Part shown: one piece after another, positions 22,993-28,823 of the stretch | Numbering within the stretch: position 1 is the first letter of the stretch | How the letters are laid out: each line of letters opens with the position of its first letter | Source: an uncultured Hyphomicrobiales bacterium | GTDB taxonomy: Bacteria > Pseudomonadota > Alphaproteobacteria > Rhizobiales > Beijerinckiaceae | Reading direction: 5' to 3' | NCBI GenBank assembly: GCA_903931945.1 | Contig: CAIZEI010000061.1 | Location: 2,994 to 66,993 of the forward strand | Length of the DNA stretch: 64,000 nt | Notes under the pieces: generated by a model | What the model was told of the DNA's origin: nothing | What the model saw: the letters and a program-made list of their open reading frames with translations, nothing else | The model's database searches: none | Translations under genes and position numbers: made by a program

Positions 22993-25137
22993 ATGTCAGA
23001 AAAGACGACGGACCGCGTTGCAATGGTCCATGCGCTGCTGAACCCCAGGAACATCGCTATTGTTGGCGCCAGCGACAAGCCCGGCGCATGGCCCGAGCGC
23101 GCCTATCGCAATCTCCGGCGTTATGGCTATGAAGGCAAGATATTTCCCATCAATCCCTCGCGCGATGAAATCTGGGGCATTCCCTGTTATCGCCGGTTTG
23201 CGGATATTCCCGAGCCTGTCGATCATCTGTTGATTGTCTCGCCCGCGCGCACTGTGCCGGGCGCGATCCGCGAGGGCGCAGCCGTTGGCGGGCGCAGCGC
23301 CACCATCATGTCGTCCGGATTTGAAGAGTCGACGGACGCCGGCGGCAAGGAGCTTGGCGCTGATCTGCGGACAGCGATCGCGGAAACCGGCGTCGCGGTT
23401 TCCGGGCCCAATTGCATGGGCAATTTTCATTTTGACTCCAGCTTTTACACAATGACCGACGACCGCCCGCATCATTTTGTCGATGGACCCGTAGCCGTAT
23501 TCGGCCAGTCGGGCGGCATCGTCATGGCGATGAAACGTGGGCTCGACGAGCGCGGCATCGTCTGCAATTCGCTGATCACCAGCGGCAACGAGGCGGGCCT
23601 GAGCAGCGCCGATTACATCTCCTATTTTGCAGATCATGCGGCGACCAAGGTCATCGTCTGCTATCTTGAATCCATCCGCGATCCCAAAGCGTTTCTGGCC
23701 GCCTGCCGCAAGGCGCGCGCGGCGGGCAAGCCTGTTGTTGTCGCCAAACTGGGCCTCTCGGACGAAGGACAGAAAGCCGCCGCCGCCCACACAGGGGCAA
23801 TGGCGGGCTCCATGGCGGCGTTCGATGCGGTGGCGTGGGAGGCGGGCGTCGTGCGCGCCCGCAATCTTGACGATGTTGTTGAGGTCACCGAACTTTTGGC
23901 CCATTGCAAACTCCCCAAAGGCGGGCGCCCCGGCTCGATCACATTCTCCGGAGGCATGCGCGGGCTGCTGCTCGATATGGCGCTCGCCAATGGCATGGAC
24001 TATCCGCCGTTGTCGCCTTTCACGCGCGAAAAGCTTGAAAAGATTCTGGGCGTCGGCACGATTGTCGGCAACCCCCTGGATTCAGGGTTTACAGGCCTTT
24101 CAAGCCATTCGGCCTATATTGAATGCGTGCATGCGCTGCTGGACGATCCTAACATCGATATTCTGTTGTTGCAGGAGGAGTTGTCGCGCGGGCCGGGCAA
24201 TGACCGCAAGGAGAAGAACATGCGCGCGGTCAACGCCATTGCCGCGACAGCTGCAAAGCCCATCGCCTTCGTCAGCATGGTGTCCTACGCCCTGACCGAC
24301 TACAGCCGCGCGCTGCGCGATGAAATGCGCAACGTCGCCTTCCTGCAGGAATGCGACAAGGCTTTGCGGGCCATCGGCTCGGTCGGCCGTTATGTCGAGG
24401 CGCTTGGCGCAACGCCGGTGGCTGCGCCCGCGCCGAATGTGGCTGGCCTTGCTGTTCTGAAAGAGGTACTGGCGCAACAGGGCCCTGCAACGCTCGATGA
24501 GGTCACCTCCAAGAAACTGCTGGCGGCCTATGGCATTGCGGGGCCGCGCGAGGAGAGCGTTGGGGATGAAGACAGCGCGGTCGCCGCCGCAGCGCGGATT
24601 GGCTATCCCGTCGCGATGAAAGCGATCAGCGCCGCGCTTCCGCATAAATCGGACGCGGGCGCGGTGGCGCTGGGCGTGAAAAATGAGGCGGAGGCGCGCG
24701 CTGCTTATCGAAAAATTGCGGCGGCGCTTGCCGCGCATCCCGCAACGCCGGCGCTGGAGGGCATGCTGGTCGCGCAAATGATTTCGGGCGGGCTTGAACT
24801 TGTGCTGGGCGTCAAGCGCGATCCGGAAATGGGAGCGGTGGTGCTCTTCGGTTCGGGCGGCGTCGATTTGGAATTGCATAGGGATGTCGCGTTGGCGTCT
24901 GCGCCGCTCGATGAGGCTCGCGCCAATACGCTCATCGACCGCACCAGGGTTGCAACGCTGATCAACGGCTATCGCGGGAAGCCGGCGCTCGACCGTAAGG
25001 CTCTTGTCAAGGCGCTCATTGGCCTGTCGCATCTGGCCGTCGATGCGGCGGGCTCCATTGTGGAAATTGACGTCAATCCGTTTGTGCTGATGCAACAGGG
25101 CGGACTGGCGCTCGACGGGCTCGTGGCGCGGAGCTGA
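22993..25137 (+). CDS. ADP-forming acyl-CoA synthetase (acetate-CoA ligase family), probable hydroxycinnamoyl-CoA ligase
   Basis: LLNPRNIAIVGAS CoA-binding domain, GPNCMG, GQSGG, phospho-His AAAAHTGAMAG, ATP-grasp HKSDAGAV...EIDVNP. Substrate inferred from HCHL context. Confidence 0.88.
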   Translation: MSEKTTDRVAMVHALLNPRNIAIVGASDKPGAWPERAYRNLRRYGYEGKIFPINPSRDEIWGIPCYRRFADIPEPVDHLLIVSPARTVPGAIREGAAVGGRSATIMSSGFEESTDAGGKELGADLRTAIAETGVAVSGPNCMGNFHFDSSFYTMTDDRPHHFVDGPVAVFGQSGGIVMAMKRGLDERGIVCNSLITSGNEAGLSSADYISYFADHAATKVIVCYLESIRDPKAFLAACRKARAAGKPVVVAKLGLSDEGQKAAAAHTGAMAGSMAAFDAVAWEAGVVRARNLDDVVEVTELLAHCKLPKGGRPGSITFSGGMRGLLLDMALANGMDYPPLSPFTREKLEKILGVGTIVGNPLDSGFTGLSSHSAYIECVHALLDDPNIDILLLQEELSRGPGNDRKEKNMRAVNAIAATAAKPIAFVSMVSYALTDYSRALRDEMRNVAFLQECDKALRAIGSVGRYVEALGATPVAAPAPNVAGLAVLKEVLAQQGPATLDEVTSKKLLAAYGIAGPREESVGDEDSAVAAAARIGYPVAMKAISAALPHKSDAGAVALGVKNEAEARAAYRKIAAALAAHPATPALEGMLVAQMISGGLELVLGVKRDPEMGAVVLFGSGGVDLELHRDVALASAPLDEARANTLIDRTRVATLINGYRGKPALDRKALVKALIGLSHLAVDAAGSIVEIDVNPFVLMQQGGLALDGLVARS

Positions 25138-25265
25138 CTCGTTTCCGGGGAGGTCGTTGCGGGTTTTGCGATGTCCGCTTTCGCCTGGGGTGCGGACGGG
25201 AGAGGCGGGGGAGCGAACGGCGGATGTGCGCCAAGGGCCGAGATAGGTAGATCGGAATTAACTCG

Positions 25266-25832
25266 CTAAAGAATTCCGAGGCACATGAGAAGAGATTTGA
25301 GCTCCGGCTCAACCGCCGCCGCGCGCCGCACGGCCGCCAGGTCAAGCCGCCGGGCCAAGTCAGCGCGATTCATCGGTTTCTCATATTCCGGCCAATCCCG
25401 AATGAGAGCCTGCCCAGCCCGCGGAGTATCGGGAGGTCGATGCCCGGCGCGACCCTGCAGGTGGCGCAGCAGCACCGCCTCAAAACAGGGGCGTTGCCAC
25501 ACGATGACGATATTGTCGTCAGCCGCCGTGCGCCGCGCTTGGTCGGCGCGTTGCGGATCGCGTTCGGCCTGGTCGAAATCGAGGAGTACGAAACGCTCTG
25601 CGGGCGCGGTGCGAGTCCGCCGCAAATGTTCAAGCCGGCTCACCGCCATTTCGACCCGCGCCAGCGGATCGCCGGCGCCTGGTCCCAGCTCCTCCACAAC
25701 GAGGTGGACCGGTAGCCCGACCTCCCTGAGCAAGTCCTGCAGAAAGCCTGCATAGCTGACCTCTGAAGCGCCTTCACAGCCGATATAGACTGGCCGTCGT
25801 TGCAGGATGTATGGCGGGCGGCGACGGGTCAT
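25266..25832 (-). CDS. rloB: RloB-like (TOPRIM-type) protein
   Basis: YIGCEGASEVSY, FVLLDFD, RPCFEAVLLRH motifs; 4-bp overlap with the upstream ATPase. Confidence 0.8.
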   Translation of the reverse strand: MTRRRPPYILQRRPVYIGCEGASEVSYAGFLQDLLREVGLPVHLVVEELGPGAGDPLARVEMAVSRLEHLRRTRTAPAERFVLLDFDQAERDPQRADQARRTAADDNIVIVWQRPCFEAVLLRHLQGRAGHRPPDTPRAGQALIRDWPEYEKPMNRADLARRLDLAAVRRAAAVEPELKSLLMCLGIL

Positions 25833-27058
25833 CCGAGGAGTGGAACCCCGCCGTAAGCGCCGCTCAGATATTTGCGGTAATGGTTTTCATCGCGGCGGAC
25901 CTTCACATCCATGAGGCTGTAGACGCGTGTGCGGCCCTGGCGGTCCTTCTCGCAGATCACGATTTCCTCCTTGTGGAGATCGTCGAGAAGCGAGGCCGAA
26001 TGGCATGTCAGCCAAAGTTGCGCGTCGAATTTGTTCCGGTTTTCCTTGTCGTAGAACCATCGCACCAGCTGGGGCAGCACGACCGGGTGGATGGCCGCGT
26101 CCATCTCGTCGATTGCGACAAGACCGCCTCTGTCGAGCGTCCGAACGAGGAAGGGAAACATCTTGATAAAGGCCCGGGTGCCGTGGCTTTCAAGACCCCA
26201 GGGCATCTCGATCTGCAGGCCAGAATGTTTGAATTGCAGGAACGGGCCGTTCGGGCTTTCCTGAAAACGGAGACCTTCCACACCCACATCGATGCGGCTC
26301 AATTCGGCATTCAAGCGCGATAGCACATCGGGCTGACCCTTGAGGTAATCGATAACGTGCTTGTCCTCGACCGCATGAACGGGTTCGATCACGAAGGCCG
26401 CCTTGCGCGACACCTCGACAAAGAGTTGCGCGGTCGGGTGCTGAAACTTCGCAAAGGACGACAGCACCGTGTGATTGCCGGCCAGCGTTTTCACGAGATG
26501 CTGAAAACCCGAGAGGCTGAAGGCTTTGGAATCCTTGATACGGCCTTCGGCATCGCGCTCGAAAAGACGTTGCCATTTTCCTTGAGCATTCGGTTTCTGG
26601 CGCAGGGCTTCCGCGATGATGCGACGGGCGACTCCCTCCTTGACCTCGATTTCCAATTCGTAGCGATAAACGCCTCGCTCAACAGTCTCGCCCGCTTGGG
26701 CGCGCTTCATGTTTTCCGGCGTCAGATTCATCACGCCGCCTAGCTCAATAGCAAGACGGATTGGACGTTCGCACGACTCCTTGTCGTTAAAGCGCTCGCA
26801 GCCAATGAAGACGTTTCCGGCGTGTTGGATACTGTCGCGGATCATTGACACGAGGAACTGGAGGGCGCGTAGAACCGTCGTCTTACCCGAAGCGTTCGCG
26901 CCATAGAGCGCGATGACCTTTGGGACGCGCACGTCCGCGCCGTCGAAGATCGGCGCAAAGCGTCCTTCGGGATCAGGGACTTTGCCATCCACCGACAGGT
27001 CAAGCACCTGGCGGTCGCGGATAGAGAAGAAATTCTCGACCTCTAGCTTGTAGAGCAT
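25829..27058 (-). CDS. rloA: RloA-like ABC-type ATPase (AAA_21)
   Basis: MLYKLEVENFFSI; Walker A GANASGKT; signature-like ESHGT; Walker B IDEMDAAIHP; LTCHS; C-terminal YLSGAYGGVP. Confidence 0.85.
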   Translation of the reverse strand: MLYKLEVENFFSIRDRQVLDLSVDGKVPDPEGRFAPIFDGADVRVPKVIALYGANASGKTTVLRALQFLVSMIRDSIQHAGNVFIGCERFNDKESCERPIRLAIELGGVMNLTPENMKRAQAGETVERGVYRYELEIEVKEGVARRIIAEALRQKPNAQGKWQRLFERDAEGRIKDSKAFSLSGFQHLVKTLAGNHTVLSSFAKFQHPTAQLFVEVSRKAAFVIEPVHAVEDKHVIDYLKGQPDVLSRLNAELSRIDVGVEGLRFQESPNGPFLQFKHSGLQIEMPWGLESHGTRAFIKMFPFLVRTLDRGGLVAIDEMDAAIHPVVLPQLVRWFYDKENRNKFDAQLWLTCHSASLLDDLHKEEIVICEKDRQGRTRVYSLMDVKVRRDENHYRKYLSGAYGGVPLLG

Positions 27059-27078
27059 GGGACACCTCGATTAGGTCT

Positions 27079-27108
27079 ATAATAGCATCTTTAACAAAAA
27101 TTCGTCAA
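27079..27108 (-). promoter_or_regulatory. Near-consensus sigma70 promoter for rloA
   Basis: Minus strand TTGACG-N18-TATTAT with TG extended -10, in an AT-rich patch; GAGG RBS just before ATG 27058. Confidence 0.6.
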
Positions 27109-27434
27109 TATGTAGACTATAGCCATATAAATGCATATTCATAGCGCGCAGAGCCGGTGTGGCAGGCGGCATTGCAAAATCATTCCAAAAAATGCACGAA
27201 AAGGCCTGTCCTCAAGCCGGCTGAAGGACGATGCGCTAACCGCGATCCGCCAATTTTGGGGCCCTTGTCGATTATAGAATTTTTCAACGGCACACTTAAA
27301 TTGCGCAAAATTTTACTGGCGGCTTGTAGGCTCGAGGACGGTCATAACCCGCCAATCCAGCTCTATCCGACCCGTTCCGCAGTCCACCCTGAAGCCGGCA
27401 TTCGCACGCAGCCGGGTCTCGACCGACAAAGGTG

Positions 27435-28823
27435 TCAATCGTTCAGAGCCAGGCTCTCGCCGGCGTTCAGGAAGCGCATGGGATCGACCGGCTCCCCGTC
27501 AACGCGCACTTCGTAATGCAGATGCGAGCCGGTGGAGCGGCCCGTTGAACCGACGCGGCCGATGGTGTCGCGGGCGCTGATCATCTGGCCAGGCGTGACA
27601 TCGATTTCCGACATGTGGCCATAGCGTGTGCTGAGACCATTGCCATGATCGATTTCGACCATATTGCCGTAGCCGCCTGTCCAGCTGGCGATTGTCACCT
27701 TGCCGGCGGCTGTCGCGTGGATCTGCGCGCCGGTGTTTTCCCTGAGATCGACGCCGGTATGCGTCGCCAGGCGCCCGAAGAACGGATCGACGCGGGCGCC
27801 AAAGGGCGAGGTCACCGTCAATGGGCCGCCGAGCGGTTTACGCAAGGGCGCCTGGAGCGCCGCGCGGGTCAGCACCGCTGCCTCTGCAAAATCGTTCTGC
27901 ATTGCGAAGACCTCGCGTTCGAACAGCGATCCCTTCGGATCGACTTTCAGTGGAACGAAGGGCCCCCCGACGTCGTGCGCCGAACTCACGCTGGACGCCA
28001 TCATTTTTTCAACCGGCAAACCAGCGACGCGCATCGCCTCGCGCAATCGCGCAGCCGAGCGGTGGGCGCGTGACCCGACCGCTTCCACAGCGGCGATCTG
28101 ATTGACTTCGATCTGCTGTAATTCAACGGAAATCGCGCCCAGTCTTTTTTCGACGGGCTGGCTTGCATCGGTCAGCGTCGCCAGCATTCTGTCAGGCGCG
28201 CCGCCCAGCGCGCCCTGCTGTTCAGGCGCTTCCGGTCGCGGTTTGTCCGAATCCGAAGACGAAGGCTGGCGGTCGAGCGGCGCATAGGCGGGCGCATTCA
28301 GGGCGCCCACTGGCGCTGGCGGTCCGAGACGCAGCGCAGCGCCGGGCGCGGCGAAGACCCGGTTTAACGCGCCTTTTGCATCGGCGGGTTTGGCTTCAGG
28401 CGGGGCAGGCAAAGGGTTGGCGCCGGTTTGCTGCGCGAGCTGCTGGATGATCTGAGCGCGACTTTCGATCTGCGCCTGTCGCGACAACAATTCGTGGACC
28501 CGTCCTTCGATCGTGTTCTGGTCCAGCAACTGGCGGCCTGTGACGGAATCGAGCTGCGTGCGCATGGCGGCGATGCGGTCTTCATAGGCGTATTGCATCT
28601 CGTTCTGGCGCGCCATCAAACTGGCGAGCAGATCGTCGCGATAGATCAGGTAGAATGTCGCGCCGATGTAGGCGCAGAGGACGAAAGGCGCGGCGCAGAG
28701 CAGCCCGAACAGCGTCCAGGGCGAAATTGCAAAGCAGCGGAGCTTTTCGCCGCGCGCAAATGTGACGAAGTAATGCGATCTTGAGGCTTGCGGCCGCGGC
28801 ATGGTCTTGCGCAGGGACATCAT
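27435..28823 (-). CDS. M23 family peptidoglycan metallo-endopeptidase
   Basis: N-terminal TM plus coiled coil; HTGVDL, GGYGNMVEIDHG...YGHMS, STGSHLHYEV. Start 28802-28868 uncertain. Confidence 0.92.
   Translation of the reverse strand: MMSLRKTMPRPQASRSHYFVTFARGEKLRCFAISPWTLFGLLCAAPFVLCAYIGATFYLIYRDDLLASLMARQNEMQYAYEDRIAAMRTQLDSVTGRQLLDQNTIEGRVHELLSRQAQIESRAQIIQQLAQQTGANPLPAPPEAKPADAKGALNRVFAAPGAALRLGPPAPVGALNAPAYAPLDRQPSSSDSDKPRPEAPEQQGALGGAPDRMLATLTDASQPVEKRLGAISVELQQIEVNQIAAVEAVGSRAHRSAARLREAMRVAGLPVEKMMASSVSSAHDVGGPFVPLKVDPKGSLFEREVFAMQNDFAEAAVLTRAALQAPLRKPLGGPLTVTSPFGARVDPFFGRLATHTGVDLRENTGAQIHATAAGKVTIASWTGGYGNMVEIDHGNGLSTRYGHMSEIDVTPGQMISARDTIGRVGSTGRSTGSHLHYEVRVDGEPVDPMRFLNAGESLALND

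Follow-up and report, generated by a model that had tools for sequence, protein, structure and literature searches.

An AbiL-type ATPase and RloB gene cassette with a conserved promoter, a probable anti-phage module in an uncultured Hyphomicrobiales bacterium

What is the function of a compact pair of genes, one for an ATPase and one for a small protein with nuclease-like acidic motifs, that stands alone between a catabolic operon and an M23 peptidase gene? The pair lies in a stretch of 64,000 nucleotides (the window) from an uncultured Hyphomicrobiales bacterium of the Beijerinckiaceae (GenBank assembly GCA_903931945.1, contig CAIZEI010000061.1, positions 2,994 to 66,993), and all coordinates below are those of the window. 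A sequence-only reading had described two coupled genes of RloA/RloB type behind a near-consensus promoter and had proposed a PARIS-like candidate anti-phage system acting alone; the open reading frames (ORFs) and the ATPase and acidic motifs that it quoted were verified. We conclude with good confidence that the locus is an intact two-gene defence module of the AbiL type, with its own conserved promoter and organised as one translationally coupled operon, and an anti-phage role in this host is likely. The genes, designated here abiLi and abiLii, are arranged as follows.

25829..27058, minus strand: abiLi, 409-amino acid (aa) ORF, Rad50/SMC-like ABC ATPase (AAA_21)
25266..25832, minus strand: abiLii, 188-aa ORF, RloB-family protein, TOPRIM-like putative metal-dependent nuclease
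25829..25832, minus strand: ATGA stop/start overlap of abiLi and abiLii, 4 nt, translational coupling

As in AbiL, the two genes are adjacent on one strand and form a single operon with the ATPase gene first. The ATGA overlap was kept in all of the homologous cassettes in which the script could read both genes (19/19).

Against the PADLOC models the ATPase was matched best by AbiLi (E 4.9e-69, 230.9 bits), with AriA as runner-up (91.8 bits, E 1.9e-26), and the small protein gave a partial match to the AbiLii model (E 1.5e-9). In Pfam the ATPase matched AAA_21 (E 3.1e-20) and the small protein matched RloB at 32.1 bits, barely above the 31.5-bit cut-off. The RloB assignment is sound despite this marginal score, because, in a diverse set of 119 proteins from the 188-aa subfamily, 118 matched RloB and because hhalign aligned the subfamily profile to the canonical RloB of a same-genus genome (Pfam RloB, E 7e-41) with a probability of 92% (E 5e-7, 143 columns), the motifs CEG.SE..Y, DxD, PxxE..LL.H and Y.K all being in register. 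By these comparisons the cassette almost certainly belongs to the AbiL/RloAB family. It is an ordinary further example of the known AbiL family, already recognised by current defence-finder models. AbiL is a system of Lactococcus that aborts phage infection (Deng et al. 1999, as summarised in PMC13064643), and its founding member was isolated through a phage-resistance phenotype (PMC13064643); AbiL, PARIS and MADS3-4 have been classed together as ABC ATPase plus TOPRIM systems (PMC11464382, PMC13064643). The earlier assignment to the RloA/RloB type and the stand-alone ABC ATPase plus TOPRIM-like architecture are supported by these results, as is the candidate anti-phage role, but the system is not an unnamed one, since PADLOC knows it as AbiL.

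The nucleotide-binding machinery of AbiLi is complete. Walker A (GANASGKT, residues 53-60), a signature-like motif (ESHGT, residues 290-294, signature S291-T294), Walker B (VAIDEMD, residues 314-320) and an H-loop (TCHS, residues 351-354) were all located, and the residues K59, D317/E318 and H353 are intact. The AlphaFold2 model of AbiLi had a mean predicted local distance difference test score (pLDDT) of 84 and a predicted template modelling score (pTM) of 0.86, and its top Foldseek matches were Rad50, SMC heads and the PtuA proteins of Septu and of a retron (E about 1e-10, TM-scores 0.4-0.5). The insert of the model holds short helices (182-256) and beta elements, with no long coiled coil. 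Among 120 close AbiLi homologues the nucleotide-binding motifs were almost invariant, and variation clustered at residues about 106-150 and 206-280, within the insert between the two ATPase lobes; judged by this pattern of variation, the insert is a natural candidate for a sensor surface.

The best-conserved segment of AbiLi is its C-terminal tail, residues 381-406 (window 25841-25916, minus strand), with the pattern RRDENHYRKYLSGAYGGVP. This tail is disordered in the AlphaFold model (pLDDT <50), and the same motif is found at the end of the ATPase in distant canonical AAA_21 plus RloB pairs (L003, L004, L089 and L090). Because the tail is invariant yet disordered, and because its motif is present in distant canonical pairs, these observations suggest a contact that is formed only inside a complex; the tail could serve as a docking peptide in partner binding or in oligomerisation.

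The acidic site of AbiLii is likewise intact. The protein carries CEGASEVSY at residues 19-27 and LDFD at residues 84-87, and residues E20, E24, D85xD87 and E118 are all present. Across 119 AbiLii sequences E20 was invariant, D85 was conserved in 99% and D87 in 95%, and C19, E24, G54, Q113, E118, H124, Y150 and K152 were each conserved in at least 93%. The AlphaFold2 model (pLDDT 96.7, pTM 0.91) consists of a beta-alpha-beta-alpha-beta-alpha-beta core, with helices between the strands (13-19, 42-48, 79-85 and 109-113), and a C-terminal part that is helical. In the model E20 directly follows strand 1 and D85xD87 stands at the end of strand 3, and a Glu after strand 1 with DxD after strand 3 is the layout that defines TOPRIM (Aravind 1998, as summarised in PMC12409363). 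Foldseek searches with the model returned no solved TOPRIM structure from the PDB, the matches being generic Rossmann-like folds with none at E <=1e-3, and no TOPRIM structure from BFVD, where one phage RloB-like protein was found (E 8e-5, TM-score 0.65). Sequence searches of the PDB, whether started from AbiLii or from the family profile, gave chance matches only. When that profile was compared by hhalign with 19 OLD TOPRIM domains taken from genomes, the Glu motif alone was aligned, without significance. From the modelled layout, AbiLii is best described as a TOPRIM-like putative nuclease. One protein that appeared to be an AbiLi-AbiLii fusion (P0239, 584 aa) no longer has the ATPase tail, and its linker is rich in Arg; it looks frameshifted or deleted and was not used as evidence.

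A sigma-70-type promoter, described by the sequence-only reading as TTGACG-N18-TG-TATTAT, is present immediately upstream of abiLi, together with a ribosome-binding site and a near-palindrome.

27079..27108, minus strand: sigma-70-type promoter, -35 box TTGACG at 27108-27103, 18-nt spacer, TG-extended -10 box TATTAT at 27084-27079
27063..27068, minus strand: Shine-Dalgarno sequence GAGGTG, 4 nt 5' of the abiLi ATG, AGGT conserved in the cassette alignment
27091..27108, minus strand: near-palindrome over the -35 box and spacer, family consensus TTGACGA-N4-TCGTTAA, 7-4-7

A consensus scan matched the promoter at 10 of 12 positions. The bare consensus does not exceed chance on its own (2 sites in the region against 0.9 +/- 0.9 in shuffles); the promoter is, however, conserved over 22 related cassettes and is recognisable in a sister subfamily at 43-46% identity. 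The consensus upstream sequence of the cassettes is TAATcga.TTATTGACGAAaT.TCGTTAAAaATGCTATTaTA. Over the 22 cassettes the majority-base fraction from the -35 box to the spacer motif TCGTTAAA was 0.83, compared with 0.81, 0.84 and 0.64 at codon positions 1, 2 and 3 and 0.41 in unrelated flank. By this comparison the promoter is real and constrained, because its core is as conserved as codon positions 1 and 2 while synonymous sites are saturated, and the spacer carries extra information. The spacer motif TCGTTAAA pairs with the -35 box into the 7-4-7 near-palindrome (window 27091-27120; upstream regions of L038-L066), so that the left half-site is the -35 box itself. The copy studied here, TTGACGA-ATTT-TTGTTAA, is more degenerate than the family consensus, the right half-site is nearer to perfect (TCGTCAA) in a few cassettes, and a similar near-palindrome is retained in the sister subfamily. 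From its sequence the element is a possible operator. No DNA-binding domain was recognisable in AbiLi or AbiLii, nor is the cassette accompanied by a regulator gene. When the whole genome was searched for TTGACG-N6-CGTYAA, one unrelated site was returned and no sign of a host regulon emerged, the cassette's own copy missing this strict pattern through its TTGTTAA half-site. The 5' leader of the cassette showed no unusual fold, and no Rfam family matched within 24900-27600.

Is the pair a fixed part of the genome, or an accessory one? Universal syntenic conservation in relatives, which the sequence-only reading had named as the finding that would speak against its proposal, was not observed: no orthologue of the pair was found in 24 same-genus species genomes, and an AbiLii homologue was found in 4 of 400 evenly sampled other species genomes of the same order, all at <=50% identity. 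Other, distant pairs (33-39% identity) are held by 3 of the 24 same-genus genomes, and two of these were confirmed as canonical AAA_21 plus RloB. Cassettes with 67-90% DNA identity occur in Hyphomicrobiales metagenome-assembled genomes and in Rhizobium, Agrobacterium, Ensifer, Methylocystis, Aquabacter, Sphingobium, Sphingomonas, Rhodobacterales, Rhodospirillales, Paraburkholderia and Caballeronia, and more than 1000 close proteins were found in metagenomes. Copies are carried by plasmids, both conjugative and small, among them Rhizobium megaplasmids, Burkholderia plasmids and a 28.8-kb Lichenicola plasmid, where they sit amid VapBC and RelE/ParE modules, insertion sequence elements and integrases. 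Being rare in relatives yet present as 67-90% identical copies in scattered Alpha- and Betaproteobacteria and on plasmids, the pair has a distribution that indicates an accessory, horizontally transferred module with a sporadic spread. No compositional sign of recent transfer was seen, as the GC content at third codon positions (GC3, 0.69-0.71) matches that of the host.

Both genes are under purifying selection, with ratios of nonsynonymous to synonymous substitution (dN/dS) of 0.04-0.2 and saturated dS values of 0.8 to >4, and the pairwise distances of AbiLi and AbiLii are correlated (r = 0.89), the two proteins having diverged together. DNA similarity between cassettes starts at about 27110-27129 and ends at the abiLii stop codon (about 25264). 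The interpretation of these limits as the ends of a discrete mobile unit was considered and rejected: with neutral sites saturated, flanks that evolve neutrally could not be recognised anyway, and the limits mark the reach of selection. No empty site was found in the same-genus genomes, which are too diverged (M23 protein <=61% identical), and synteny in them is kept only on the M23-bcp-yhdP side; with one-sided synteny and such divergence the boundaries of an insertion cannot be defined.

How might such a pair act? No mechanism has been published for AbiL (PMC13064643, PMC10802264), as the sequence-only reading had held for this type of system, but experiments in Escherichia coli have shown neutralisation of a Clostridium RloB-node toxin by its cognate AAA ATPase (PMC10440598). 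In PARIS, AriB is sequestered by AriA until a phage protein is sensed and is then released (PMC11464382, PMC10802264). On the strength of the PARIS analogy and of the neutralised RloB-node toxin, we infer, as the best-supported model, a toxin-antitoxin (TA)-like sensor-effector arrangement, with AbiLi as sensor and antitoxin and AbiLii as toxin; the trigger and the substrate named below are likewise inferred. By analogy, AbiLi would oligomerise and keep AbiLii inactive. A phage-derived cue would be sensed through the variable insert regions of AbiLi, and an ATP-dependent change in AbiLi would free or activate AbiLii. The acidic site of AbiLii (E20, E24, D85, D87 and E118) would then cleave nucleic acid with a divalent metal, possible targets being host RNA, such as tRNA, or DNA, and this cleavage would stop growth and abort the infection. 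Sequestration and release as such is put forward tentatively, as a conceivable mechanism modelled on PARIS. A further and more speculative combination, which we consider rather unlikely, would have the near-palindrome bound by an AbiLi-AbiLii complex in TA-style autoregulation, and the AbiLi tail (read as R-R-D-E-N...Y-L-x-G-x-Y-G-G-x-P) tethering the RloB nuclease in an inactive state until a phage cue arrives. If true, this would be the first regulatory and structural logic for the entire AbiL/RloAB class, and a case of TA-style autoregulation by a Rad50-like ATPase without a recognisable DNA-binding domain.

Since TA logic is part of this proposal, the pair could also be mainly an addiction module, in which AbiLii is the toxin and AbiLi the antitoxin, plasmids or islands are stabilised, and defence is absent or incidental in this host. 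The close plasmid copies amid VapBC and RelE/ParE modules would fit such a role, as would a near-palindrome over the promoter, which is found in autoregulated TA operons; in the NetFlax study, moreover, the RloB-node toxin/AAA antitoxin pair was validated by neutralisation of toxicity, with defence not shown (PMC10440598). The cassette studied here, however, is chromosomal and lies between housekeeping-type genes with no mobile element there to stabilise, and it was resistance to phage that led to the isolation of the founding AbiL (PMC13064643). Addiction as the main function is quite improbable for this host, and addiction and abortive infection can coexist, so that the two are not mutually exclusive. 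Decay or domestication, leaving a remnant with a housekeeping function or none, would agree with a stand-alone chromosomal site without mobility genes and with the host-like GC3, but the catalytic residues are all intact, purifying selection is strong and the pair was not found in nearly all of the relatives searched, which together make a remnant very unlikely. It is equally hard to credit that the pair is an accessory of type I restriction-modification (R-M), working only with R-M as would RloA/RloB of the Campylobacter hsd loci. The RloB family was named from such loci (PMC10440598, PMC10802264) and one homologous copy stands near a Dcm methylase and Vsr, yet a Pfam scan of ten neighbours (15.9-33.2 kb of the window) found no hsd or other R-M genes and no defence genes, in agreement with the context given by the sequence-only reading, and no mobility genes; most homologous copies have unrelated, non-R-M neighbours, and the cassette has its own promoter.

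A true PARIS system (AriA/AriB), sensing anti-restriction proteins and cleaving tRNA, would share the two-gene layout of ABC ATPase plus TOPRIM-like protein, and the PADLOC AriA model does match the ATPase (1.9e-26). That match nevertheless stands at 92 bits against 231 bits for AbiLi, and AAA_15 scores 31.2 bits, under the Pfam cut-off of 32.1. The small protein has no DUF4435 (PF14491) match at E <=1 in Pfam and, apart from AbiLii, no AriB or other effector model of PADLOC matches it; DUF4435 does not figure among the 25 commonest family matches of the 119 AbiLii members, and AbiLii has 188 aa compared with about 300 aa for the 35-kDa AriB. The AlphaFold2 model of AbiLi lacks a long coiled coil, and AbiL and RloAB are structurally distinct from PARIS according to Deep et al. 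(PMC10802264). Identity with PARIS is extremely improbable on these grounds, and the earlier description of the pair as PARIS-like holds at the level of architecture but not of family.

The preferred assignment, an AbiL-type defence module, can be placed more closely by comparison with known systems. AbiL of Lactococcus lactis plasmid pND861, the basis of the PADLOC/DefenseFinder models, likewise has an AAA_21/Rad50-like ATPase of about 400 aa followed by a small RloB/TOPRIM-like protein; the cassette studied here differs in that its subfamily is proteobacterial, its RloB is shorter, at 188 aa, and it has a conserved promoter element of its own. RloA/RloB of Campylobacter jejuni are of the same protein families, an AAA ATPase plus RloB, but those genes lie inside type I R-M (hsd) loci, whereas this cassette is free-standing. 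PARIS shares an ABC ATPase sensor with a separate TOPRIM-type nuclease effector and likely a TA-like logic; it differs in that the effector here is RloB and not DUF4435, and in that the ATPase here is smaller and, where AriA has its coiled-coil insertion, is modelled with short helices and beta elements. Among solved structures, AbiLi is nearest in fold to PtuA of Septu, retron PtuA and Rad50/SMC heads, but the partner nuclease of Septu is HNH and not RloB. OLD nucleases and Gabija GajA also combine an ABC ATPase with a TOPRIM-type acidic site (E...DxD), fused there in one polypeptide and divided here between two ORFs. No likeness of AbiLii to OLD TOPRIM domains was recovered by sequence or by Foldseek, and a search for PF20469 (OLD-like TOPRIM) throughout the genome that contains the window gave no match.

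Little here is conceptually new, as AbiL-type ATPase plus RloB pairs have already been catalogued. What is modestly new is a compact, populous subfamily of proteobacteria in which RloB is short, the promoter/operator-like element is deeply conserved and the ATPase tail is invariant and disordered. Its value is that of a clean study object, a compact 1.87-kb unit for a family without a published mechanism, with targets for mutagenesis in proteobacterial hosts.

The surroundings of the cassette agree with the placement between a catabolic operon and the M23 gene that had been read from the sequence. By Pfam, one flank encodes an ABC transporter ATPase, a TctC-like protein, an enoyl-CoA hydratase, a solute-binding protein, a permease and an ADP-forming acyl-CoA synthetase, and the other encodes the M23 peptidase, Bcp and a YhdP-like protein. 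The window as a whole contains no tRNA gene. A 305-bp spacer (window 27130-27434) separates the cassette from the M23 stop codon; with a GC content of about 0.49-0.52 it is AT-richer than its surroundings, and it has no similarity to the DNA downstream of M23 in relatives. A consensus scan placed one further feature in this spacer, as context outside the system.

27203..27218, minus strand: terminator-like hairpin, 3' of the M23 gene

The hairpin might keep transcription of the cassette apart from that of the M23 neighbour, but terminator-like sites in the region are no commoner than in shuffles, which makes it weak evidence.

Several observations concern related loci. Two same-genus genomes without this cassette, G001 (L003 631-2550) and G022 (L004 800-2751), hold other canonical pairs (RloB E 1e-38 to 1e-41); as relatives without the cassette hold other canonical pairs, different AbiL variants replace one another in the genus. 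Rhizobium sp. YS-1r carries the cassette between pgk and gap, accompanied by a small ORF and a Na+/H+ exchanger gene. On one metagenomic contig (L038 3655-5756) a close copy adjoins a second pair, comprising a 426-aa AAA_21 ATPase and a 274-aa protein without a Pfam match, and this second pair is followed by the Dcm-type methylase and Vsr. In the sister subfamily (43-46% identity) a large NACHT-domain gene directly precedes the ATPase-RloB pair on two plasmids unrelated to each other, one of Sphingobium and one of Agrobacterium (L089 1-1385; L090 1-928), which may reflect a defence island or a three-gene arrangement. Finally, several short metagenome contigs, including L063 and L064 (2.2 kb), carry an identical abiLi gene, begin about 410-470 bp 5' of it and break off within abiLii, 15 codons before the stop; these breaks could stem, among other causes, from strain-level heterogeneity around the cassette.

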